Shown piece by piece: positions 18,320-38,679 of a stretch of DNA of 64,000 bases. The stretch spans positions 6,173 to 70,172 of IMG/VR virus record IMGVR_UViG_3300047160_002873; one strand, written 5' to 3'. The notes below the pieces were generated by a model. It was given only the letters and a program-made list of their open reading frames with translations, searched no databases and had not been told where the DNA came from. The translations under genes were made by a program, and so were the position numbers. The stretch comes from a virus. The stretch's first letter is position 1. Each line of letters opens with the position of its first letter.

Positions 18320-18900
18320 GGGGAGGGGTGGACGTCAGTACACACGTCCGCGCGAACGAATCAGCAACAAACAGGATACGCGGAAAAAGCGTCACGACGT
18401 GTCATGACGCGTCAGTCAACACTTTGTGGACAGCAATCAGGGCTGCCCCCTAGAAATAGTGCTATGCGGTTATTCTGTTAACGCATGTAAGTTTACACTT
18501 GCATGACAGCCCGATTCGTGGATTCGTACGCAAGCGAAAGGGGCGCTCCCGGCAAGGAGGCACCCCTTTCTGAAACTGCCTAAACCTGTGACGTTTTGCA
18601 GCCGTGATGTTCACATAACATCCTCCCCCGCAAAATACAACAGGTTCCAAGGCAGCTTCGCCCATAGACTAGGCGAAAGCTCGGTCGGCGTGGGGCAAAA
18701 AGACCGGCCACGGACGTGCAGGCCAGCACGGCTCAGTCATCTGACCCTCAATGCATAGCACCGCCTCGGCGGTGGCCGCACCCGGCTGGCCTTTTGCCGG
18801 TGGTGTCGGAGGGTCACGATGACTGGGGGAGGGGGGGAAGGTGCCTACACCAGAAGGATAGTAACTAACAGTAGGAGTATGGAACTACTAGAGCCCACCA
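18320..18900. other. Non-coding structured region, candidate replication origin/leader
   Basis: No credible ORF; G-tracts at 18302-18331 and 18825-18837; several long inverted repeats; directly upstream of primase-helicase. Confidence 0.5.
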
Positions 18901-19897: not shown

Positions 19898-21369
19898 GAG
19901 CATTGAGACCTGACCAACACGAGGCGCTGGACAATCTGCGTGCGGCTATTGCTGAGGGCAACAAGCACATCGTGATGCAGGCGCCGACCGGCTATGGCAA
20001 GACGGTGTTATCGGCTGAGCTAGTCAACAGTGCTCGCAGCAAGGGCAAGAAGGTATTGTTCGTGGTGCCGGCGATCTCGCTGGTCGACCAGACTGTCGAG
20101 ATGTTCGCCTCGCAGGGCATCGGCGAAGTCGGTGTGATCCAAGCGAATCACCGGCAGACCGATGGCTGTATGCCGGTGCAGGTCGCCAGTGTGCAGACGC
20201 TGCAGCGGCGCGATATGCCGCCGGCCGATGTCATCGTGCTTGACGAGGTACACCGCTGGTTCAACGCGTACGGCACATGGCTGCGGACACCCGGTGTCTG
20301 GCTGGAGAAGCCAGTGATCGGCCTGTCGGCGACGCCATGGCACAAGGTGCTCGGCTGCTACTTCGGCAAGCTGGTCAAGGCCTCGACGACGCAAGAGTTG
20401 ATCGATGGTGGCCTGCTGTCAGACTTCAAGGTGTTTGCCTCGGATCATCCTGATCTGGAGGGCATCGCCACGGTGGCTGGCGACTATCATGAGGGCGAAC
20501 TGGCTGAGCGCATGTCGAATGTGAAGCTGGTGGCCAACATCGTCGAGACGTGGCTGGAGCATGGCCGCGGCCGTCCCACCTTGTGCTTCGCTGTCGATCG
20601 CTGCCACGCCAAGCATCTGCAGAAGCAGTTCGAGGACCGCGGCGTCAAGGCGGCCTATCAGGATGCGTTCACGACGCCACACGATCGAGCGGCGATCAAG
20701 ACGGGCTTCCACGACGGCTCGATCGAGGTGGTGGTGAACATCGGCACGCTGACAACTGGTATCGACTGGGATGTCCGCTGCATCATCCTCGCGCGCCCCA
20801 CAAAGAGCGAGATGTTGTTTGTGCAGATCATGGGCCGCGGCCTGCGAACAGCCAGTGGCAAGGACCATCTATTGTGCCTCGACCACACTGACAACCACCT
20901 GCGCCTCGGGTTCGTGACGGACATCGATGCCAATCACGATGAGCTACTGAACAAGGCCGATCGCGTCGTCAGCGTGACCGATAAGATCAGGCTCCCGAAA
21001 GAGTGCCCGGCCTGCAACTTCCTGAAACCACCGGGGACCGCAAAGTGCCCGTCATGCGGCTTCATTGCGGTGAAGCACAACAAGATCGAGCCTACCGCGG
21101 GCGAGTTGAAGGAGATCGAGCGCAAGAGGAAGGCGGCCGAGAACGATATCAACCCGGCAGTCTTTTTCTCCGAGTTGCTGGCCTACGGCATCGAGCGTGG
21201 CTACAACCCGGGATGGGCTGCGAACAAGTACCGGGAGAAGTTCGGGGTATGGCCTAACGGCCTGAAAGGCACCATGGCTGCACGCGAGATATCGGCAAAG
21301 ACGCGCAGCTGGATCAAGTCACGCAATATCGCATGGGCGAAGTCCAAGCACCGGTTTTCCACAGCCTAG
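19894..21369 (+). CDS. Superfamily II DEAD/DEAH helicase with C-terminal Zn finger
   Basis: APTGYGKT, DEVH, SATP, QIMGRGLR, CPAC/CPSC. Confidence 0.92.
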   Translation: MRALRPDQHEALDNLRAAIAEGNKHIVMQAPTGYGKTVLSAELVNSARSKGKKVLFVVPAISLVDQTVEMFASQGIGEVGVIQANHRQTDGCMPVQVASVQTLQRRDMPPADVIVLDEVHRWFNAYGTWLRTPGVWLEKPVIGLSATPWHKVLGCYFGKLVKASTTQELIDGGLLSDFKVFASDHPDLEGIATVAGDYHEGELAERMSNVKLVANIVETWLEHGRGRPTLCFAVDRCHAKHLQKQFEDRGVKAAYQDAFTTPHDRAAIKTGFHDGSIEVVVNIGTLTTGIDWDVRCIILARPTKSEMLFVQIMGRGLRTASGKDHLLCLDHTDNHLRLGFVTDIDANHDELLNKADRVVSVTDKIRLPKECPACNFLKPPGTAKCPSCGFIAVKHNKIEPTAGELKEIERKRKAAENDINPAVFFSELLAYGIERGYNPGWAANKYREKFGVWPNGLKGTMAAREISAKTRSWIKSRNIAWAKSKHRFSTA

Positions 21370-21409
21370 TCAACGAGGCGTTGACGCCGGTCCTGATTCG
21401 TGAGACAAC
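21369..21409 (+). promoter_or_regulatory. Promoter cassette copy (palindrome + TGATTCG)
   Basis: GTCAAC-GAGGC-GTTGAC, then CCTGATTCGTGAGACAACCC, also present at 26071-26090. Confidence 0.7.
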
Positions 21410-21467
21410 CCGCGGACTGGACGGCCACCTTGCAGTGTCCGTCCTCCCCTCGAACCCGGAGCCCTTA

Positions 21468-21584
21468 ATGGCCTTTATGAACTTCTGGAAGACAATCAAC
21501 TCGATCCTCCGCTCGCGCGGTCAGGATGAGTTGCTCTACGGAGACGCCCGCGCGTGGTGGGCGGAGTATCTGGCGAATAGCTAG
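21468..21584 (+). CDS. 38 aa leader/early peptide
   Basis: MAFMNFWKTINSILRSRGQDELLYGDARAWWAEYLANS with CCCGGAG RBS. Confidence 0.55.
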   Translation: MAFMNFWKTINSILRSRGQDELLYGDARAWWAEYLANS

Positions 21585-21588
21585 GAAA

Positions 21589-21948
21589 AGGTGAGTTCTA
21601 CACGGCGCAAGAGTCCAGCCCAAAAGGTCTCGTGAAATTGGACGAAGTATCGAGCTAACCTCATCCCCTTGTGGGAACGGTTTCGACGGTAGGGATAAGC
21701 TGGAGCGTAGCGTGGCAGCCTCTGCAGGCGAACGACCACTGTTGCAGTGATAGACGCAGAACACCAAACCTTGCGCCCGGCAGCTTCGGCTTACCGGGCT
21801 TAAGGCAATAGGAGGTGGTGTTTCCAAAGGGCCGCGGTGTCGGGCTCTGCGGGCCACGGTATCCCGTCTGTCCTTGGCCGGACGCACGGGAGACTGAAGC
21901 AGAGTGAGAGCTTCGATGCTCTCCCTTTTGGTAACACCATCTCCACCA
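21589..21948 (+). ncRNA. Candidate large structured ncRNA; 3' domain closes with an acceptor-like helix + ACCA
   Basis: Non-coding gap dense in complementary segments (see findings); strand inferred from the upstream promoter and G-U pairs. Confidence 0.55.
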
Positions 21949-21978
21949 TCAACCTCAAACATCAGGAGACTACCACCT

Positions 21979-22860
21979 ATGAATGCACATGCCACACTTC
22001 GTTCCGGCTCGCTTTACACCCAGACTGCCCGCTTCGATGACCAGCAGCACTTCCTCACCGAAGACGAATTGCGCTCGATCGCCCCGAGCGTCTTCGCCAC
22101 CACTGCCCATGAATCCCGCTCCGCCCGCTTCAAGCCGATCGCGACCTATGACGTCGTGCGCAAGCTGGAGCAGGAGGGCTTCGGCGTCGTTGGCGCGGTG
22201 CAGTCGATCGCCCGGTTCGAGGACCGCAAGGACCATACCAAGCACCTGCTGCGTCTCCGCAAGAAGGACGACGTGCAGCGCAATGTCGGCGATACCGTTT
22301 TCGAGATACTGCTCAAGAACGCCAACGACGGCACCGCGGCCTATGACCTGCTGGCAGGTCTGTTCCGCATCCGCTGCCTCAACTCGCTGGTGGCGATGTC
22401 CACCCAGCTGTCGACGCAGCGTGTGCGCCACTCCGGCGACGTCGCACCCAAGGTGATCGAGGGCGTGTTCTCGGTCCTCAACGATGCGGAGCGCGCTCTC
22501 AACGCTCCGGACCAGTGGGGTCAGCTGCAGTTGGCTGCCCCAGAGCAGGTGGCGTTTGCCGAAGCGGCTCATGCTATCCGCTTCCCGGTCGACGAGAACA
22601 GCAACCAGACCACCCACGTTAAGCCGGAGCAGCTGCTTGAGGTTCGCCGTGAGGGTGATCGGGGGACTGATCTCTGGACGGTGTTCAACCGGGTTCAGGA
22701 GAACGTCATCCGCGGCGGGTTGGAGAACTACGGCTACAACGCGGCCAACCAGTATCGCCGGGCCCACACCCGTCAGGTCAAGGGCATCGACCAGAGCACC
22801 GCTCTGAACCGTGCGCTGTGGACGCTGGGAGAAAAGATGGCTGCCCTCAAGGCGGCCTAA
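21979..22860 (+). CDS. DUF932/DUF945-family protein
   Basis: ELRSIAPSVFA..AHESRS.RF..I.T, TKHLLRLR, NANDGT.AY.L.AGLFR..C.NSLV, DLWTVFNRVQEN, LNRALW. Confidence 0.85.
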   Translation: MNAHATLRSGSLYTQTARFDDQQHFLTEDELRSIAPSVFATTAHESRSARFKPIATYDVVRKLEQEGFGVVGAVQSIARFEDRKDHTKHLLRLRKKDDVQRNVGDTVFEILLKNANDGTAAYDLLAGLFRIRCLNSLVAMSTQLSTQRVRHSGDVAPKVIEGVFSVLNDAERALNAPDQWGQLQLAAPEQVAFAEAAHAIRFPVDENSNQTTHVKPEQLLEVRREGDRGTDLWTVFNRVQENVIRGGLENYGYNAANQYRRAHTRQVKGIDQSTALNRALWTLGEKMAALKAA

Positions 22861-22900
22861 CGAGACCCCGGGGGTTGACACCATTCCCCCGGCAAACTTG

Positions 22901-22935
22901 CCCCGGAGGCTTCACCATGGCCTCCGGGGTCTTTT
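22901..22935 (+). terminator. Rho-independent terminator
   Basis: CCCCGGAGGC/GCCTCCGGGG 10 bp stem followed by TCTTTT. Confidence 0.7.
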
Positions 22936-22952
22936 GAACAGGAGCCCTGTCA

Positions 22953-23159
22953 ATGCCTAGGAAGCGCGGCGAGAAAATGAAGATCATAGCGGGGCTCCTG
23001 CGCCGCAAAGAGGGCTGCACCGCCAAGGAAGTGAGGGAGGCTCTTGGCTGGCCTGCAGTGTCGATTAATCAGCGTGCAAGACAGCTGGGTATCAAGACCC
23101 GGAGAGAGACACGTTATTGGGCTATCCGTCCTAATCGCCGTAAGAGCATCACACCCTAG
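22953..23159 (+). CDS. Small winged-HTH protein (DUF3489-like)
   Basis: LLRRKEGCTAKEVREALGW pattern; CAGGAG RBS. Confidence 0.6.
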   Translation: MPRKRGEKMKIIAGLLRRKEGCTAKEVREALGWPAVSINQRARQLGIKTRRETRYWAIRPNRRKSITP

Positions 23160-23363
23160 CGCACAGGGCGGCCTCAGGCCGGAGGGTGCGACACGGACAA
23201 GCAGGAGGGTGTCCGTGGGATCAAAACAACCGCCTGCAGCTGGGGATCGGAGTCATTAACCGAGGCCCCAGCAATTTTCTCTACTGTGGCATATTCGCCA
23301 TAGCCAGTAATTCGCAAATCAGATACAGGTCGACTCATCATTCGAAAAGGGGAGCTACCACAC

Positions 23364-24260
23364 ATGAAGAAGTTACTACTGGGCGCCAGCTATCTGGTGC
23401 TCTCTACCACTACTGTGCTCGCAGGGGATAGCAACACCGCGGTAGGTGTTGGCGTCGCCAAGTCTACGTCGATCTCCAACGCACAGTCACAGGCAGTCGC
23501 GATCTCCGGCCAAGGAGGCGCAGGCGGCCAAGGAGGCGCAGGCGGTCAGGGCGGCAAAGGCGGCACGGGAATAGGTGTCGGCACTGGCGGCAATGTAACC
23601 TTCAACACTCCCGCCAACACTACACAAACCATCACCACGCAAGGCCATAGCTCGGTCTCCACGGTGCCCAGCGTGTTCGCTCCCGGGCTCGCCGCGGCTG
23701 GCATCGAAAGCTGCTTGGGCTCAGTCTCTGGCGGAGGCAGCTGGCTGGGCACCGGCATCACGCTCGGCGGTAGCATTCCTGATCGCGACTGTAGTACGCG
23801 TCTTGATGCGCGCACTTTGTGGAGCATGGGCCTCAAGAGGGCAGCGGTCTCGCGTCTCTGCCAGTCCGACAGCATCTACAACGCGATGCCAGACGTCTGC
23901 GGCGTCTATGTGATCAGGCCTACGCCATTGTTGGCTCCGGTCGGTTACCCGGCTCCAGCGGCTCCGCTGTCCGTCTACGCATCTACTGACAAAGCATACA
24001 GTGGTGGTCCGATCCTGCTTGTCGATGGCAGGCATGGCCAGAACGGTCGTGAGCACCTCTGCAACAGTTACGACGAGCCCAAACAACGCTGCCGCGTATG
24101 GGCTGACGCCGTAACCGTGAGGCCGAAACGTGTTGCGCGTGCGGCTCCACGGAAAGACCAAGTGGCAGCACCAGCTCCCGTCAAGCAGGAGGCTCCGGCT
24201 TCCCCGGCGACGGACAACTCATCCGCCGTAATCACGGCTGAAAAGAAGGAAGCAAACTAA
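23364..24260 (+). CDS. Secreted Gly/Ser-rich protein with 6 Cys
   Basis: Signal peptide MKKLLLG...VLA; GQGGAGG repeats; SC...DC...LC core. Confidence 0.7.
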   Translation: MKKLLLGASYLVLSTTTVLAGDSNTAVGVGVAKSTSISNAQSQAVAISGQGGAGGQGGAGGQGGKGGTGIGVGTGGNVTFNTPANTTQTITTQGHSSVSTVPSVFAPGLAAAGIESCLGSVSGGGSWLGTGITLGGSIPDRDCSTRLDARTLWSMGLKRAAVSRLCQSDSIYNAMPDVCGVYVIRPTPLLAPVGYPAPAAPLSVYASTDKAYSGGPILLVDGRHGQNGREHLCNSYDEPKQRCRVWADAVTVRPKRVARAAPRKDQVAAPAPVKQEAPASPATDNSSAVITAEKKEAN

Positions 24261-26583: not shown

Positions 26584-26653
26584 GGCGTCCCACATCGACC
26601 CTGCGCCGGGCGCCTTCGGGCTACCCGGCTCGGGGCGTTAGAAGGAGCATCCA

Positions 26654-31500: not shown

Positions 31501-34500
31501 ATGGCTGACCCTATTGTACACGTCACCAACGGCATCCCTGACGCCGGCACCGGCAACATAACCACCCTCGGTCAGACTCTGCTGGACGGCGCCAACATTG
31601 TCTTCGGCGCCACCTCCGATCTCGCGATAACTGCCGGAGCAGCCGGCACCATCTCGGCCAAGCTTCGGTCGATTTCGCGGGACATCGTCGGCGGCATCGT
31701 GCTGCAGACGGGCGCCAACGTCATTGGCGCGGTGACACAGTCTGCCGGGCCATGGTCGGTCTCCGGCACTGTGGCAGCAACACAGAGCGGCGCATGGAAC
31801 ATCGGGAATATAACGGGCACCGTATCACTCCCGACGGGAGCTGCTACATCTGCGAATCAGCCGACCAATGTCACACAAGCCTCTACCACGTCTGGACAAA
31901 CCGGCTCTCTGTCCTTCGGTGCTGTCACAACTGCGGCACCATCGTATGGCACCGGACAATCGAGTCCCGTTTCCCTGACGACGGCTGGAGCGCTCCGGAC
32001 TGACAGCAGCGCGGTCACGCAGCCGATCTCCGGCAGCGTCACGGTCACCGGCACCACGACGGTCACCGGGACCGTGGCTGCGACGCAGTCAGGAACGTGG
32101 AACATCGGCACCCTGACGTCGATCACCAACCCGGTGGCGGTGACTGGTACATTCTGGCAGGCCACCCAGCCCATATCGGCAGCCGCCCTTCCGTTGCCAT
32201 CTGGCGCGGCTACGAGCGCCAACCAGACGACGGCCGCGGCTCAGGGCTCCGCCACCAGCGGCCAGACTGGACCGCTTGTACAGGGCGCTGTGACGACCTC
32301 AGCACCCACCTACACCACAGCAACCACCCAACCAGTATCGCTGACCACGGCAGGTGCGATACGGGTCGACGGTTCCGCCACTACCCAGCCAGTGAGCGGG
32401 ACCGTCGCGGCCACACAGTCCGGCAACTGGTCGAGCCGGCTACAGGATGGCTCCGGCAATGCCATAACCTCGGACGCCCGAGGCACAGCCCGGCCGCTGG
32501 CTGTCGAGATACTGGACGCCAGCGGAAACCAGATCACGAGTTTCGGTGCCGGTTCAGGACCAAGCTTCGGTGCGGCCTTCCCGTCGACCGGGCAGGCGAT
32601 CGGCGTCAAGGACTCGACCGGCGTCAATATGACCAACCTCAAGGCCAACGCATCCAACGCGTTGGTTGTTGATGGCAGTGCAGTCACCCAACCGGTGAGC
32701 GGCACCTTCTGGCAGGCGACGCAGCCTGTTTCCGGGACGTTCTGGCAAGCAACCCAGCCCGTCAGCGCAGCGTCCCTGCCACTGCCGTCCGGCGCATCGA
32801 CATCGGCCAACCAGCCAACCAATGCCGCGATTGCCTCGACCACGTCAGGTCAGACAGGCAATCTGTCTTTTGGTGCAGTCACTACGGCTGCGCCGGCCTA
32901 CACGACGGCTCAGAGCAACCCATTGAGCCTGACCACCGCGGGCGCATTGCGTGTCGACGGGAGCGGCGTCACGCAACCAGTCTCCGGTACCGTGGCAATC
33001 AGCGGGACAGTCGCGGCAACCCAGAGCGGAACATGGAACATAACCAACATCACTGGCACAGTCTCATTGCCAACGGGAGCAGCGACCAGTGCCAACCAGC
33101 CATCGAATGCTTCGCTTGGGAGTGCAACCTCGGGGCAAACGGGACATCTCGCCCTCGGAGCCGTTACCACAGCCGCACCATCGTATACGACGGCAACCAG
33201 CAACGTCTTGTCACTTACCACTACAGGTGCCCTGCGTGTGGATGGGAGTGGAGTTACACAACCTGTTAGCGGCACGGTCACGGCATCGCAGGGAGGCACA
33301 TGGACGGTTCAGCCGGGCAATACAGCCAACACCACACCATGGCTGATCTCGATCCAGCAGGGCGGCAATACAGCAGCGGTGACGGCGGCGAGCGCGCTGA
33401 AGGTCGACAACAGCGCAGTGACACAACCTGTCTCGGGAACGGTCGCAGCGACGCAGAGCGGCAACTGGACCAGCCGCACGGTCGGCAATGCAGGGGCGAT
33501 TCTCGACTTCGCCGGGCAGAACGCCTCGGCCCCGGCCAACTCATTCTTGGTCGGTGGTGAGTTCAACACCACGCCCACCACGATCTCCTCGGGCAATGCG
33601 AGCCCCCTGCAGCTGGACAGCGCCGGCAACCTACTTGTGAACGTGAAGGCAGGTGGCGCCGCGGGCGGCACATCGTCAAGCTTCGGCGCGGCGATCCCGG
33701 GTACAGGCACCGCGGCCGGCTTCAGCGATGGCACGAACATGCAGCTGGCGCGCGTGTTCGATGGCGACACTGGCGCGGGCACGCAATACAGCCTCGGTGT
33801 CCTGCTCAAGACACCAGCGAGTGGCGGTGCGGTCGACGTCGGTGTGAGCGGCCAGCCGTTGCGTGTTGATCCCACGGGCACCACGACGCAGCCAGTCAGT
33901 GGCACCTTCTGGCAGACTACGCAGCCGGTGTCGGGCACTGTCACGGCGAATCAGGGGAGCCCACCATGGACAGTCAAGCCGGACGGAACGGTCTGGGGAG
34001 TGACAGGCACGAGCGCGAACGTCAACCTGACGAACGCGAGTGTCGCGGTGACCGGGACATTCTGGCAGGCGACGCAACCAATCAGTGCGGCGAGCCTTCC
34101 ACTTCCGACTGGTGCGGCAACGTCAGCCAATCAGCCCACCAACGCAGCGCTGGGATCGACTACGTCTGGTCAGACTGGGTATCTAGCCCTTGGAGCCGTT
34201 ACTACTGCTGCGCCAACGTATACGACTGCGCAGAGCAACGCACTCAGTCTCACCACCGCGGGTGCGTTGCGCGTCGATGGAAGCGGAGTGACACAACCGG
34301 TCAGTGGGACGATTAGCGTCTCGGGCACAGTCGGGGTTACACAGAGCGGCACATGGACAGTTCAACCCGGAAACACAGCGAATACGACGGCTTGGCTAGT
34401 TACCGGGACTGGTGGCACGTTTCCCGCGACCCAGAGCGGTACTTGGAATATTACGAATGTCTCCGGGACCGTGTCATTGCCGACTGGCGCGTCTACCAGT

Positions 34501-37500
34501 GCGAATCAGCCGAGCAATGCGGGCCAAGGATCGACGACCAGCGGCCAGACCGGCACCATGGCGATGGGTGCGGTCACGACCGGCAACCCAACCTATACAA
34601 CGGGCCAGACCAGTCCCCTGTCATTGGATACATCGGGTGCCTTGCGCGTCAATGTTATCGCTGGCTCAGGCGGTGGTGGCACTAGCTCAAGCTTCGGCTC
34701 TGCATTCCCCGCCACAGGTACGGCGATCGGTGCGAAGGACTCGGCCGGCACGAACATGACGTTCCTGCAGGTCAATTCCAGCAACGCGCTCAAGGTGGAT
34801 GGAAGCGCCGTCACCCAGCCAGTGAGTGGCACGTTCTGGCAAGCTACGCAGCCCGTTTCAGGCACTGTCACGGCAAACCAAGGCGGTGCGCCATGGACGA
34901 TGAAACCAGACGGCACCGTCTGGACGCTGACCGGCACGAGCGCCAATGTCAACGTGACCAACTCGGTCACGATCTCGGGCACTGTGACTGTTACGGGCAC
35001 GGTCGCGGCCACGCAATCAGGCAACTGGACTAGCAGGATCGTCGGCAATGCCGGCGCAACGCTCGATGCGGTGATCGGCAATGCCACCGCACCAACAAAC
35101 ATGATCGCTGTGGGGGGCGTCTTCAACACGACCCGGCCAACGCTGACCACGGGTCAGTCCGCGGCCTTCCAATCGAACAGCAGTGGCGTGCAGCTGGTCG
35201 ACGGGTCGACGGTGACACAGCCTGTATCGGGTACTTTCTGGCAAGCTACACAGCCTGTATCGGGCACGGTGACTGTGACGCAAGGCACAGCCGCCAACCT
35301 CAACGCGACTGTGACCGGCACGGTGGGTGTTTCGGGCACGGTGGCCTGCACACAGAGTGGCACATGGAATATCACAAACATCTCAGGGACTGTCTCGCTC
35401 CCGACTGGGGCGGCGACCTCTGCAAATCAGCCCACGAATGCAAGTTTGGGCTCCACTACCTCGGGACAGACCGGGTATCTGGCACTTGGCGCGGTTACTA
35501 CCTCTGCCCCCACCTACCTGACGGCGCAAACCAACGCGCTATCGCTTACTACAGCCGGCGCGTTACGCGTGGACGGAAGTGGGGTGACGCAGCCCGTCAG
35601 CGGAACCTTTTGGCAAGCCACGCAGCCCGTATCCGGGACCGTTACGGCTAACCAAGGCGGCACTTGGACTGTGCAGCCCGGGAATACAGCTAACACGACA
35701 CCATGGCTCGCCAAGATCGGTGATGGCACGAACAGCGCAGCGATCAAGGCGGCGAGCACGAGTGCAGTCGCTGGTGATCCGGCATTGGTTGTTGCAATCA
35801 GCCCCAACAGTGCGACGGTTGCAGCAACCCAGTCCGGCACTTGGAACATCAACAACATCAGCGGCACGGTGAGCCTGCCTACTGGCGCCGCAACGAGCGC
35901 CAACCAGCCCAGCAATATCGCGCAAGCTGCAGCGACATCCTCGCAAACCGGTACACTTGCGATGGGTATGGTGACGACCGGAAACCCAACCTATACGACA
36001 GGCACGATCAACGGCATGAGCCTCGATACCTCGGGCGCTCTACGTGTGAACGTTATTGCTGGCTCAGGTGGTGGCGGCACGAGCAGCTCATTCAGTAGCG
36101 CGTTCCCCGCAACTGGTACGGCGATAGGTGCCACGGACGGCACCAATATGAAGCCGTTGAAGGTTGATGGCGCTGGCAATTTGAATGTGGTCAGCACACC
36201 AACAATATGGACTCAAACTAATAACTGGACATCAGCAACTCCGGGCAATTCGACTGTCCTTCTCTACAATGGCACGTCTCTGGTTGAGACTGTGCTTGCG
36301 GGTCAGCTGACCACGACAAGCACGATCACCGCGGGTGCTCTTACATTCGAAGAGAGCTGGGATGCAGGTACGACGTGGAAGAGCGTTCCTGCTGCGCGCA
36401 TGCTTGATCCAAGCACGGGGTTTCAACTCTCGAACCCGTACACGCTGGCCCCTACCACGACTCAGCCATTCCAGATCGTTATAGATGGTGCGGCACAGAT
36501 TCGGAGCCGTCTCTCAACAGCCATCACGGGGACTGGAACGCTTACTATTGGCTGGACGATGGCAAACCTGTCGGGCCCAGTTCCTATTATTCAGCAGGGC
36601 GCGCCATTTTACAGCAACATACAGCAATGGGGTAACACGGCATTAGGTGCGCCGTCGAACTATGGCACATCGCCCGGAGCTGTCTCCGTGCCCGGCGTCA
36701 ATGCTTTTGTGACCAATACCGTTGCAGTCTCCGGCACCTTCTGGCAAGCAACTCAGCCGGTCAGTGGCACTGTCACCGCGAACCAAGGCGGCGCTCCATG
36801 GGCGCAAAATGTCAGCCAGTTTGGCGGCACGAACATCTCGACGGGCACGGGTGTAGGCGGCGCCGGCATTCCGCGCGTTACGGTGTCGAGCGATAGCACG
36901 GTCGGTGTGTCTGGCACGGTGACAGTTTCGGGCACAGTTACTGCCAACCAAGGCGGTACATGGACTGTGCAGCCCGGCAACACGGCCAACACTACAGCTT
37001 GGCTGGTCACTGGCACAGGCGGGACATTCCCGGTCACCGGAACCTTCTGGCAGGCTACTCAACCAGTCTCCGGCACGGTCTCTGCTCAATCATCGACCTC
37101 TCCAGTGTCGACAATGAACAGTGCGAGCGCCAATACCGGCCTCAATGCAGCAATGGCTGGCGTGTTCGACGACGTCACGCCGACAGCGATCACCGAGAAC
37201 AATTTCGGTTTTGTGCGCATGTCGGCCAACCGCAACCTCTATGGCACGATCCGCGACGCTGCCGGCAACGAGCGCGGTGTCAACGTCACCACGGGCAACG
37301 CCCTGACGGTCGATGGCTCGGCCACTACCCAGCCGGTCTCGATCGCAGCCTCGGTGACTGTGCAGCAGGCCACCTCGTCCAACCTCAAGGGACAGGTCGA
37401 CCCCCTGACGCCGGCAAGCTGGGCGATCGGCACGAGTACCTACAACAGCGCACTGGCTACCAACGGTCATTTGGCGTTGGCCCAGTTCCAGACCAGCCCC

Positions 37501-38679
37501 GGCGCGCTGACCACGACCAACATGGCCCCACTGCAGGTCGATGCGAACGGCAACCTGCGCGTCAATATCATGGCCGGCGCCGGTTCGGGCGGCACGAGCA
37601 GTACTGTCGGTGGCGCCATGCCCTCGACGGCTACGGTGGCCATGGGTTCGGTTACGACTGCGGCCCCCTCCTACACCACTGCCACCGCGAATGCCCTCTC
37701 CCTGACCACCGCAGGGGCTCTGAGAGTGGACGGAAGCGCGGTTACCCAGCCGGTATCAGGAACCTTCTGGCAGGCGACCCAGCCAGTGAGTGGTACTTTC
37801 TGGCAGACGACCCAGCCGGTCTCCCTGACCTCCACCACGATCACAGGTACGGTCGCTTGTACCCAGTCCGGCAACTGGACATCGCGGATCGTGGGGAACG
37901 CGGGAGCCACGCTGGATGCCGTTATCGGCAACGCGACGGCTCCGACCAATATGCTGGCGGTGGGTGGCGTCTTTAATACGTCCCGGCCGACACTCACGAC
38001 AGGCCAGTCCGCGGCGTTCCAGTCGAATAGCCAAGGTGTGCAGCTGGTTGACGGCAGCACGGTGACGCAACCGGTGTCGGGCACATTCTGGCAGGCAACC
38101 CAGCCAGTCAGCGGAACCTTCTGGCAGACAACCCAGCCTGTGAGCATTGCAGCCGCAGTCAACGTCAACGCCACCCAGACCACCAGCCCTTGGGTTGTGG
38201 CAGGCGATACTGCTTCCGGCTCCGCTGACGCGAACAACCCAATCAAGGTTGGCGGTGTTGCTCGCACCGCAAACCCGACCGCCGTCACGACCGGCCAGCG
38301 GGTTAATGCCACGTTCGATAAACTCGGCAAGCAGGTGGTGGTCGGCGCGATTCGCGATCTCAAGGGTGTGCAGAAGACTTCCATAACCGTCAACACCGAA
38401 ACAACGGTCGTGACGGCAGGCGGCGCCGGCGTCTTTAATGACGTCTATGCCATCACGGTGACGAACAAGAGTGCGACCTCGGTCTTCGTCGACTTCAAGG
38501 ATGCGACTGCTGGCACCATTCGCATGACCTTGGCCGCCCCGGCCAACGACACGAGAGGCTTCACTGTGCCCGTCGATTCAGCCATGGTGCAGGCAGTAGC
38601 CGCCAACAACTGGACAGCCACAGTGAGCAGCGCCGTGACCTCGATCGAGATCACCGTGCTCTATGTGCAGAACATATAG
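31501..38679 (+). CDS. Giant beta-repeat fibre/adhesin protein (2392 aa)
   Basis: Many TQPVSGTFWQA, SLPTGAATSANQP and LSLTTAGALRVDGS repeats; T/G/S/A-rich; unique insert near 36190-36600 and a C-terminal globular domain. Confidence 0.8.
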   Translation: MADPIVHVTNGIPDAGTGNITTLGQTLLDGANIVFGATSDLAITAGAAGTISAKLRSISRDIVGGIVLQTGANVIGAVTQSAGPWSVSGTVAATQSGAWNIGNITGTVSLPTGAATSANQPTNVTQASTTSGQTGSLSFGAVTTAAPSYGTGQSSPVSLTTAGALRTDSSAVTQPISGSVTVTGTTTVTGTVAATQSGTWNIGTLTSITNPVAVTGTFWQATQPISAAALPLPSGAATSANQTTAAAQGSATSGQTGPLVQGAVTTSAPTYTTATTQPVSLTTAGAIRVDGSATTQPVSGTVAATQSGNWSSRLQDGSGNAITSDARGTARPLAVEILDASGNQITSFGAGSGPSFGAAFPSTGQAIGVKDSTGVNMTNLKANASNALVVDGSAVTQPVSGTFWQATQPVSGTFWQATQPVSAASLPLPSGASTSANQPTNAAIASTTSGQTGNLSFGAVTTAAPAYTTAQSNPLSLTTAGALRVDGSGVTQPVSGTVAISGTVAATQSGTWNITNITGTVSLPTGAATSANQPSNASLGSATSGQTGHLALGAVTTAAPSYTTATSNVLSLTTTGALRVDGSGVTQPVSGTVTASQGGTWTVQPGNTANTTPWLISIQQGGNTAAVTAASALKVDNSAVTQPVSGTVAATQSGNWTSRTVGNAGAILDFAGQNASAPANSFLVGGEFNTTPTTISSGNASPLQLDSAGNLLVNVKAGGAAGGTSSSFGAAIPGTGTAAGFSDGTNMQLARVFDGDTGAGTQYSLGVLLKTPASGGAVDVGVSGQPLRVDPTGTTTQPVSGTFWQTTQPVSGTVTANQGSPPWTVKPDGTVWGVTGTSANVNLTNASVAVTGTFWQATQPISAASLPLPTGAATSANQPTNAALGSTTSGQTGYLALGAVTTAAPTYTTAQSNALSLTTAGALRVDGSGVTQPVSGTISVSGTVGVTQSGTWTVQPGNTANTTAWLVTGTGGTFPATQSGTWNITNVSGTVSLPTGASTSANQPSNAGQGSTTSGQTGTMAMGAVTTGNPTYTTGQTSPLSLDTSGALRVNVIAGSGGGGTSSSFGSAFPATGTAIGAKDSAGTNMTFLQVNSSNALKVDGSAVTQPVSGTFWQATQPVSGTVTANQGGAPWTMKPDGTVWTLTGTSANVNVTNSVTISGTVTVTGTVAATQSGNWTSRIVGNAGATLDAVIGNATAPTNMIAVGGVFNTTRPTLTTGQSAAFQSNSSGVQLVDGSTVTQPVSGTFWQATQPVSGTVTVTQGTAANLNATVTGTVGVSGTVACTQSGTWNITNISGTVSLPTGAATSANQPTNASLGSTTSGQTGYLALGAVTTSAPTYLTAQTNALSLTTAGALRVDGSGVTQPVSGTFWQATQPVSGTVTANQGGTWTVQPGNTANTTPWLAKIGDGTNSAAIKAASTSAVAGDPALVVAISPNSATVAATQSGTWNINNISGTVSLPTGAATSANQPSNIAQAAATSSQTGTLAMGMVTTGNPTYTTGTINGMSLDTSGALRVNVIAGSGGGGTSSSFSSAFPATGTAIGATDGTNMKPLKVDGAGNLNVVSTPTIWTQTNNWTSATPGNSTVLLYNGTSLVETVLAGQLTTTSTITAGALTFEESWDAGTTWKSVPAARMLDPSTGFQLSNPYTLAPTTTQPFQIVIDGAAQIRSRLSTAITGTGTLTIGWTMANLSGPVPIIQQGAPFYSNIQQWGNTALGAPSNYGTSPGAVSVPGVNAFVTNTVAVSGTFWQATQPVSGTVTANQGGAPWAQNVSQFGGTNISTGTGVGGAGIPRVTVSSDSTVGVSGTVTVSGTVTANQGGTWTVQPGNTANTTAWLVTGTGGTFPVTGTFWQATQPVSGTVSAQSSTSPVSTMNSASANTGLNAAMAGVFDDVTPTAITENNFGFVRMSANRNLYGTIRDAAGNERGVNVTTGNALTVDGSATTQPVSIAASVTVQQATSSNLKGQVDPLTPASWAIGTSTYNSALATNGHLALAQFQTSPGALTTTNMAPLQVDANGNLRVNIMAGAGSGGTSSTVGGAMPSTATVAMGSVTTAAPSYTTATANALSLTTAGALRVDGSAVTQPVSGTFWQATQPVSGTFWQTTQPVSLTSTTITGTVACTQSGNWTSRIVGNAGATLDAVIGNATAPTNMLAVGGVFNTSRPTLTTGQSAAFQSNSQGVQLVDGSTVTQPVSGTFWQATQPVSGTFWQTTQPVSIAAAVNVNATQTTSPWVVAGDTASGSADANNPIKVGGVARTANPTAVTTGQRVNATFDKLGKQVVVGAIRDLKGVQKTSITVNTETTVVTAGGAGVFNDVYAITVTNKSATSVFVDFKDATAGTIRMTLAAPANDTRGFTVPVDSAMVQAVAANNWTATVSSAVTSIEITVLYVQNI

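Follow-up and report, generated by a model that had tools for sequence, protein, structure and literature searches.

A lineage-specific enlarged second hairpin in a two-hairpin intercistronic cassette upstream of a DUF932 gene in a soil phage clade

Introduction

In the DNA of a virus catalogued as IMG/VR record IMGVR_UViG_3300047160_002873, a segment of 138 nucleotides (nt) in the 5' leader of a DUF932 gene can be folded into a long closing helix, which carries a branched head and is followed directly by the letters ACCA. The stretch analysed here, referred to as the window, covers bases 6173-70172 of the 70,172-bp record, which is rated 100% complete, and the segment lies at 21811-21948 on its + strand. 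What kind of element is this, and does its resemblance to a tRNA acceptor end mean anything? The original prediction, made from the letters alone, described a four-way junction with a pseudoknot and proposed an enlarged tRNA mimic, ribozyme or riboswitch-like RNA. Our analysis revealed that the element is the enlarged, lineage-specific second hairpin of a two-hairpin intercistronic cassette found in a clade of soil phages. The best explanation of its role, which we hold with middling confidence, is that the 138-nt fold is a cis-acting leader hairpin of the mRNA with a fast-evolving apical expansion.

Structure of the 138-nt fold

Folding of the + strand gave a minimum free energy (MFE) of -77.1 kcal/mol, compared with -51.6 +/- 4.0 kcal/mol in 200 dinucleotide shuffles (z -6.35), and none of the 200 was as good, so that the fold was better than chance against the shuffled controls proposed in the original prediction. 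Among 4258 windows of 138 nt, taken every 30 nt on both strands of the whole window, the element had the lowest MFE and the second-best residual after correction for guanine-cytosine (GC) content. The low energy relative to the shuffles and this genomic rank indicated that the structure exceeds chance. Imperfect inverted repeats were common in the window, where 57 such pairs, each at least 14 nt long, were separated by no more than 300 nt.

All of the strings quoted in the original prediction were found where it had placed them, and the closing helix with its extension was present. The lower part of the helix, P1, was formed by residues 21811-21822 and 21933-21944 (12 bp including one G.U pair, with a pairing probability of 1.0 for 11 of the 12 pairs), and the upper part, P2, by residues 21824-21831 and 21924-21931 (8 bp including one G.U pair, probability 0.81-1.0). 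The two parts were separated by a single U.U mismatch and were otherwise fully paired as RNA; at the DNA level they appeared in the repeat search as a 21-nt inverted repeat, 86% complementary, with arms 92 nt apart. The joint 3' strand of P2 and P1 (21924-21944, + strand) was thus supported by the fold, the inverted repeat and the pair probabilities. Three arms were held on top of this stem. Arm 1 of the MFE structure (21832-21852) had 6 bp, formed between 21832-21837 and 21847-21852 with a probability of 0.57, and competed with a helix between 21844-21850 and 21899-21905. Arm 2 (21853-21900) was a rod of 2 + 4 + 6 + 5 bp capped by a hexaloop, with probabilities of 0.92-1.0 for its 11 inner pairs. 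Arm 3 (21906-21923) had a 6-bp stem with a UUCGAU loop (probability 0.73) and was followed by CCUUUUGG, the 3' strand of P2. Beyond the stem, an unpaired A/C-rich linker (21945-21963, + strand) included the ACCA and carried the motif AUCAACCUCAA, which recurs 3' of the hairpin in relatives.

The four-way junction with a pseudoknot, as proposed in the original prediction, was not supported. In the Boltzmann ensemble, P1 (about 1.0), P2 (0.8-1.0), arm 2 (0.9-1.0) and arm 3 (0.73) were robust, but the version of arm 1 in that proposal, which contained a C.A mismatch, had a probability of about 0, and the complete proposed fold reached -66.6 kcal/mol, 10.5 kcal/mol worse than the MFE of -77.1 kcal/mol. 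The proposed pseudoknot between 21844-21850 and 21899-21905 was judged by nested-fold energies and pair probabilities. It overlapped arm 1 of the MFE structure and was instead an alternative nested helix with a probability of 0.16 and a fold energy of -73.2 kcal/mol.

The significance of the fold came mostly from the 20-bp closing stem P1+P2, because the 92-nt interior, folded alone, reached only z -2.40 on the + strand, where 5 of 200 shuffles did as well, and z -3.29 on the - strand. For the whole element, the - strand folded at -63.9 kcal/mol (z -4.26), and 5 of the 51 pairs in the + strand MFE structure were G.U. The + strand, which is the sense strand, was favoured by its lower MFE, by these G.U pairs and by the gene orientation of the cassette copies described below. 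The earlier view that the DUF932 gene has an RNA-type structure on the sense strand of its 5' leader was therefore upheld.

Hairpin 1 and the two-hairpin cassette

Immediately upstream of the element, a smaller hairpin (hairpin 1, 21769-21805, + strand) ended 5 nt before P1. It consisted of a 5-bp lower, a 6-bp middle and a 3-bp upper stem closed by a UUCG loop. A second copy of hairpin 1 was found in the window at 26599-26635 (+ strand), 14 nt after a stop codon and directly followed by a ribosome-binding site and an ATG. This copy had no second hairpin, and its lower stem covaried with that of the first copy. A motif scan, in which the loop and the composition of the middle stem were fixed and the complementarity of the variable positions was left free, identified hairpin 1 at 4 viral and 19 metagenome loci. 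When the 13 distinct copies were aligned on the 14-bp three-tier stem, 96.2% of the cells were paired compared with 82.1% in shuffles, both sides changed in 6 of the 14 pairs, and the covariation score was reached by none of 500 shuffles. Sliding the partners by one column reduced the pairing to 56-60%. Hairpin 1 is thus a real structured element with strong RNA-level covariation.

A covariance model built on hairpin 1 (R2) scored the two copies in the window at 69.3 and 71.3 bits, respectively. In the 92 sources searched, it matched 24 times at E <= 2.5e-4 and 26 times at E <= 1. The 24 stronger matches were without exception in gene orientation and between open reading frames (ORFs); their stems varied, and their loops were UUCG, GCAA, GAAA or longer. 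Four virus records searched as a whole contained 2, 3, 1 and 0 copies, one locus of 14.5 kb (L104) contained four, and further loci with hairpin 1 were L090, L112, L089 and L008. Hairpin 1 was located approximately 14-30 nt after a stop codon, and about 5 nt further on stood a purine-rich box of the form UAG plus purines. The genes that followed the cassettes varied, and included DUF932 genes, ArdC genes and small unknown genes.

The purine-rich box connects hairpin 1 with the element. At the locus under study, the Shine-Dalgarno-like box UAGGAGGUG (21809-21817, + strand) followed hairpin 1 as in the other cassettes and formed the 5' strand of P1. In the second window copy and at locus L113 the same box served as the ribosome-binding site proper, with an ATG 6-7 nt downstream. 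Across 20 cassettes, the box was paired to a 3' partner in 16, compared with 8.7 expected from shuffles. The second hairpin starts in the box; it measured 5-8 bp in relatives, including 7 bp in two other DUF932 leaders, and was expanded only in the window.

Two further features of these cassettes were observed. At L104 (5282-5333, 5731-5782, 7636-7690 and 8011-8062, all on the - strand) and at L112, the box was followed by CAAUC and an AUG, which opened a frame of 11-14 codons. The frame crossed the small second hairpin and stopped at the start of the main gene or right next to it; in one copy, instead, it was in frame with the main gene. This short frame may encode a leader peptide with translational coupling. 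In a host genome (G265, locus L199, 1500-1560, - strand), an intrinsic terminator had a stem and UUCG loop nearly the same as those of hairpin 1, together with a U tract. Hairpin 1 resembles this host terminator stem but lacks the U tract, and it may have arisen from host terminators or imitate them. Since hairpin 1 follows the first gene of a unit, it is conjectured to act as an attenuator or in processing.

Conservation of the stem and replacement of the head

Homologues were sought in 80 viral loci linked through the helicase gene and in 19 metagenome loci. Among the 80 helicase-linked loci, only L006/L007 and L013 matched the gap that contains the element, over 45-57 nt that took in hairpin 1 and the beginning of P1. 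In the L006/L007 lineage, whose DUF932 protein is 80% and helicase 74% identical to those of the window, the order was stop codon, tetraloop hairpin, purine-rich box, 7-bp hairpin with a 7-nt loop, A/C-rich linker, ribosome-binding site and DUF932, and the linker carried the same AACCUCAA core as in the window. The 7-bp hairpin of L006 aligned to the base of P1, and its pairing was kept by one double change from G-C to A-U and one change from G.U to G-C. In a third lineage (G002/L195, DUF932 77% identical), an unrelated hairpin of 7 bp stood equally far from the ATG and was followed by the same linker motif. The linker motif directly 3' of the hairpin was thus common to the window, L006 and L012/L195.

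A closer view was provided by Logan contigs from four soil runs that were aligned to the element. The window form was unchanged in two of the four runs. In run X3, a 447-nt contig (record 7) matched 21792-21828 with no differences, after which the 95-nt interior (21829-21923) was replaced by 91 other letters, known by their length only. From 21924 to 21951 the contig again showed no listed difference, so that both strands of P1 were identical. The second matching piece (21924-22068, 145 nt, including the start of DUF932) contained 20 substitutions and 9 gaps. These patterns revealed that the strands of the closing stem were conserved, better than the coding sequence, and that the head was not. 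The hairpin 1 of this contig was a GCAA-capped version. At two metagenome loci, L096 and L101, a 12-bp closing helix was shared 3' of hairpin 1 and was followed by a linker ending in GAUUAA, and the interiors (about 90 and about 190 nt) were wholly different; as in the element, a conserved stem carried a swapped head.

No relative of the head was detected elsewhere. The element was single-copy (one match in its own genome), no match was found in plasmid or phage collections, and blastn and nhmmer searches of 113 loci gave no homologue of the interior. A covariance model built on the single sequence (R1) recovered only itself from 188 sources, 1.3 Mb of related loci included. Full-length matches were also absent from 401 host-order genomes; 13 of these had chance-level matches of 20-39 nt (E 4.5e-4 to 9e-3), one of them to an ordinary host terminator that looks like hairpin 1. 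Viral contigs reached through DUF932 yielded two loci (57% and 47% identity) with unrelated leaders, and 80 bacterial DUF932 loci (48-61% identity) showed no homologous leader; many of these loci had long hairpins of other kinds and a CCGCUUCGCGG-type hairpin ahead of the gene. In cultured phages DUF932 was at most 55% identical, so that no useful relative is to be found among them. Exact matches to the arm-3 string were seen twice, and both were rejected as chance matches inside coding sequence. The spurious 176-aa ORF that runs antisense over the element, when used as a protein query, gave one 99%-identical match and none among shorter proteins.

Bacterial relatives had leaders of their own. 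Chromosomal DUF932 genes of Hyphomicrobiales, or genes in the style of an integrative and conjugative element (ICE), at L118, L121, L125, L128, L130, L132, L133, L135, L159 and L162 carried a conserved leader approximately 30-120 nt 5' of the start. In this leader a CCGCUUCGCGG-type hairpin stood about 25-35 nt ahead of the ATG, together with one or two long hairpins of up to 22 bp. The leader had no match in Rfam and was unrelated in sequence to the phage leader.

An interior exchanged between identical arms could also be read at the DNA level: the 21-bp inverted repeat might be a site for a recombinase or for replication (cruciform, origin or invertible segment) or the footprint of a small mobile element with terminal inverted repeats. 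The position just 3' of primase and helicase genes and the good fold of the element as single-stranded DNA (z -5.1), in addition to the replaced interior in the relative, are consistent with this. However, the G.U pairs favour the sense strand, the region 21500-22000 contained no direct repeats or iterons, and the element region was not AT-rich (GC 0.62); without iterons or an AT-rich stretch, an origin of replication was rejected. There was no target-site duplication, the bases flanking the arms differed, and the replaced segment in the X3 contig did not align as an inverted piece. The single copy in the genome and the absence from the 401 host-order genomes argue against a multicopy miniature inverted-repeat transposable element (MITE), and the base of the arms is shared with the short hairpin of L006, which indicates that the arms are ancestral rather than inserted. 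A DNA-level element is accordingly very unlikely.

Comparison with tRNAs, riboswitches and ribozymes

The original prediction placed most weight on the tRNA-like appearance of the closing helix. If the element were a tRNA-like mimic, its acceptor helix and NCCA end would be read by RNase P/Z, the CCA-adding enzyme or synthetases, and the ACCA directly after the helix and the UUCGA-containing loop of arm 3 fit such a role. The remaining evidence was against it. ARAGORN found no tRNA and no tmRNA genes in the 64-kb window, and no match to the tRNA clan, or to any other Rfam family beyond noise, was obtained at E <= 10. The closing helix has 12 + 8 bp and not 7 bp, so the misfit to canonical tRNA spacing already noted in the prediction was real, and the T-loop-like UUCGAU is a 6-nt loop on a 6-bp stem, compared with the 7-nt loop on a 5-bp stem of a T arm. 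UUCG was the commonest loop among the hairpins of this phage group, and its presence in arm 3 is thus generic. The 3' tail was variable as well. The ACCA was kept in the X3 contig, but it reads GUUA in the L006 lineage and AUCA in a 99%-identical relative (P0121, a 626-nt contig). The antisense-ORF product of this contig was identical to that of the window at 164 of 165 residues, and the only residue that differed mapped to C21946>T, which produces the AUCA. The tRNA-mimic reading is therefore largely refuted and scarcely credible, and nothing supports the suggestion of a decoy against tRNA-targeting defences. YrlA, a bacterial and phage Y-RNA-like RNA, has a long closing stem with a tRNA-like head. 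The element resembles tRNA, tmRNA and YrlA in that its 5' and 3' ends form a closing helix under a multi-arm head with one UUCGA-loop arm. It differs from them in the lack of an ARAGORN or Rfam match, in the loop and stem lengths of the would-be T arm, in the variable 3' ACCA and in a head that is not conserved among relatives.

No family of Rfam 15 covers the element. At the gathering threshold, the only match in the window was the Proteo-phage-1 RNA (RF03044, 23154-23241, + strand; 43.9 bits against a gathering score of 42), located in the 500-nt gap 3' of DUF932. At E <= 10, the region 21400-22100 gave only noise, namely mir-1304 (16.1 bits, gathering threshold 90) and L13-Bacteroidia (15 bits, gathering threshold 38). 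In 20 related loci searched at the gathering threshold the element was likewise uncovered, and the only match was ar15 elsewhere in L159. A riboswitch or ribozyme would be expected neither from this result nor from the relatives, since in leaders whose DUF932 proteins are 77-80% identical a 7-bp hairpin is all that stands at this place, and the interior is replaced in a close relative. An ORF of 29 codons within the element, from GTG 21818 to TGA 21905-21907, was rejected as well: its start is only 2 nt from the box, and the 95-versus-91-nt swap would break the frame.

The three-armed apical domain might still be functional in itself: carried on the conserved 20-bp stem, it could bind a protein, ligand or RNA, or be processed into a small RNA (for example, an anti-defence decoy), and its alleles would be swapped or diversifying. 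The identical stem strands around a replaced interior of similar length in the close relative are what this would predict. The interior folded better than its shuffles (z -2.4) with robust arms 2 and 3, neighbouring cassettes precede ArdC-type genes, and another structured RNA, Proteo-phage-1, is located nearby. On the other hand, no homologue of the interior was present in any collection searched, related DUF932 leaders do without the domain, Rfam has no match to it, and the z score of the interior is modest, with the sense strand no better than the antisense strand. We consider a functional head unlikely. The more specific form, in which the stem is a display platform and the head an exchangeable module before an anti-restriction-type gene, acting as decoy or sensor in the conflict between phage and host, appears rather less probable still.

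Proposed role of the leader hairpin

Part of the head could alternatively act in transcription. In a conditional attenuator, arm 3 and the U-rich 3' strand of P2 would form a weak intrinsic terminator gated by the upstream arms, which would control read-through from the replication genes into DUF932. A consensus scan did flag 21906-21923 followed by CCTTTTGG as terminator-like, arm 1 has two competing pairings, and the stretch from hairpin 1 to the gene had no promoter-like site (none in 21200-23500, in a scan for the sigma-70-type consensus only). However, the region contained two terminator-like sites compared with 1.5 expected by chance, and the candidate has only four U residues, a 6-bp stem and a C-rich start of its tail. 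The L006 and L195 leaders lack the feature, and there is no conserved sensor. Such an attenuator is therefore quite improbable.

As a cis-acting leader hairpin, the element would take its place in a cassette with the order stop codon, hairpin 1, purine-rich box, second hairpin with the box as its 5' strand, A/C-rich linker and real ribosome-binding site. The second hairpin, 5-8 bp elsewhere, would here have been extended to the 20-bp stem P1+P2 with its three-armed apical domain. It would act in cis on a polycistronic early mRNA; the transcription and processing of this RNA and the effect on DUF932 expression are presumed from sequence comparison. The stem would sequester the box, a putative relic Shine-Dalgarno sequence, and would insulate the ribosome-binding site of DUF932 and the linker from upstream structure, so that both could stay unstructured. 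Being about two helical turns long, it may in addition be a processing or stability site of the RNase III type; the helix has the length of such a site (12 + 8 bp, near-continuous with one U.U mismatch). The apical 92-95 nt would be fast-evolving or exchangeable, probably without a conserved function.

Several observations weigh against the leader-hairpin explanation. The box was unpaired in 4 of the 20 cassettes, and the copies are phylogenetically non-independent. In L102, a contig of the L006 type, there was a mismatch in the stem at the base of P1, and the conservation of the P1 base comes from only three independent lineages. The approximately 40 closest soil contigs (DUF932 81-91% identity) lie outside the leader comparison. 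Cleavage by RNase III is guessed from the length of the helix; with 7 bp, the hairpins of the relatives are too short as RNase III substrates, and RNase III processing therefore cannot be the conserved role. The interior beats its shuffles (z -2.4) and is hence not featureless, and the 95-nt and 91-nt heads, alleles close in length on one and the same stem, could just as well point to a module that is functional and diversifying. Finally, the 24 sequencing runs listed for the stretch included no RNA run.

Genomic setting and host

The 138-nt element was located in a 395-nt gap in which all neighbouring genes were on the + strand. Genes for an MT-A70 methylase, a primase, a superfamily 2 (SF2) helicase and an 83-aa ORF lay 5' of the gap. 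The DUF932 gene itself (21979-22860, + strand, 293 aa; Pfam PF06067, E 1e-33) started with the ATG at 21979, and its Shine-Dalgarno sequence, read as AGGAGA, was at 21964-21969 (+ strand), 9 nt before the ATG. The window also contained the genes of a tailed phage, including terminase, portal protein, major head protein, tail proteins, endolysin and an ERF recombinase. The virus is a complete 70-kb soil phage, and the sequencing runs that contained the stretch were soil metagenomes. The nearest cellular relatives of its DUF932 protein (48-61% identity) were almost all from Hyphomicrobiales, for example Mesorhizobium, Rhizobium, Bradyrhizobium and Roseibium, and this alphaproteobacterial order probably includes the host.

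Two other regions of the window were observed. The strongest GC-corrected folding outlier of the window was at 18500-18700 on the - strand (-86.5 kcal/mol over 201 nt, z -3.99), where a long hairpin and a terminator-like hairpin occupy the 600 nt that separate the gene for the MT-A70 methylase from that for the primase. An ORF of 2392 aa (31501-38679, + strand), labelled a giant fibre in the original prediction, had no Pfam match at E <= 1e-4.

Comparison with known phage elements

The closest described system is the PeSL cassette of T4-type phages, which consists of a stop codon, a promoter with a stem-loop, a Shine-Dalgarno sequence and a start codon, is repeated in the plastic early regions of these genomes and mediates modular shuffling (Arbiol et al. 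2010, PMC2839356). In the sections of that paper on which we draw, PeSLs are described with a sigma-70 consensus promoter and a stem-loop shown to terminate, in about 50 copies (PMC2839356). The present cassette shares with PeSLs, as there described, the form of a short repeated intergenic unit, the plastic early region and the order of stop, stem-loop, Shine-Dalgarno sequence and start. Both precede different accessory genes in different relatives and are therefore likely to be points of recombination or shuffling. The embedded sigma-70 promoter was not found in 21200-23500, and termination is only a candidate role here; because the promoter defines PeSLs, the cassette was not assigned to them. 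It further differs from PeSLs, as they are presented in the same sections, in having two hairpins, a GC-rich phage with a likely alphaproteobacterial host, 0-3 copies per whole record and RNA-type covariation, and those sections describe no 138-nt branched hairpin.

Two looser analogies can be drawn. The RNase III hairpins between the early genes of T7, and the lambda N-leader and sib-type sites, are intercistronic structures of about two helical turns which act in cis on stability and translation; those of T7 are single irregular hairpins without branches. The element resembles them as an intercistronic stem-loop of about two helical turns on a presumed polycistronic early mRNA, just 5' of a ribosome-binding site, but it is branched, cleavage is hypothetical here, and the 7-bp versions in relatives fall short of that length. 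The SAS/ESAS motifs of cluster K mycobacteriophages are reportedly short motifs 5' of several non-structural genes, in many copies per genome. They are similar to the cassette as a conserved repeated family directly 5' of non-structural phage genes that overlaps the ribosome-binding region. They differ in being, as is said of them, short sequence motifs rather than covarying hairpins, with more copies and in a different host phylum. A full-text literature search on DUF932 with leading region or with phage or RNA motif, supplements being outside its scope, returned nothing on the element.

The cassette is an uncatalogued two-hairpin intercistronic unit with clear covariation, used by a clade of uncultured soil phages whose hosts are probably Hyphomicrobiales, which stands before early genes, including those of anti-restriction type, and marks module boundaries in mosaic genomes. 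The hairpin-1 family has no Rfam entry and merits a place in the catalogues of RNA families. The second hairpin, inflated to 138 nt with a head that differs between near-identical phages, is a natural example of a structured RNA arising in, or being swapped into, a hairpin loop. If the head proved functional, it would be a new phage RNA, and if it proved to be exchangeable on its stem, the element would represent a new kind of hypervariable RNA cassette.

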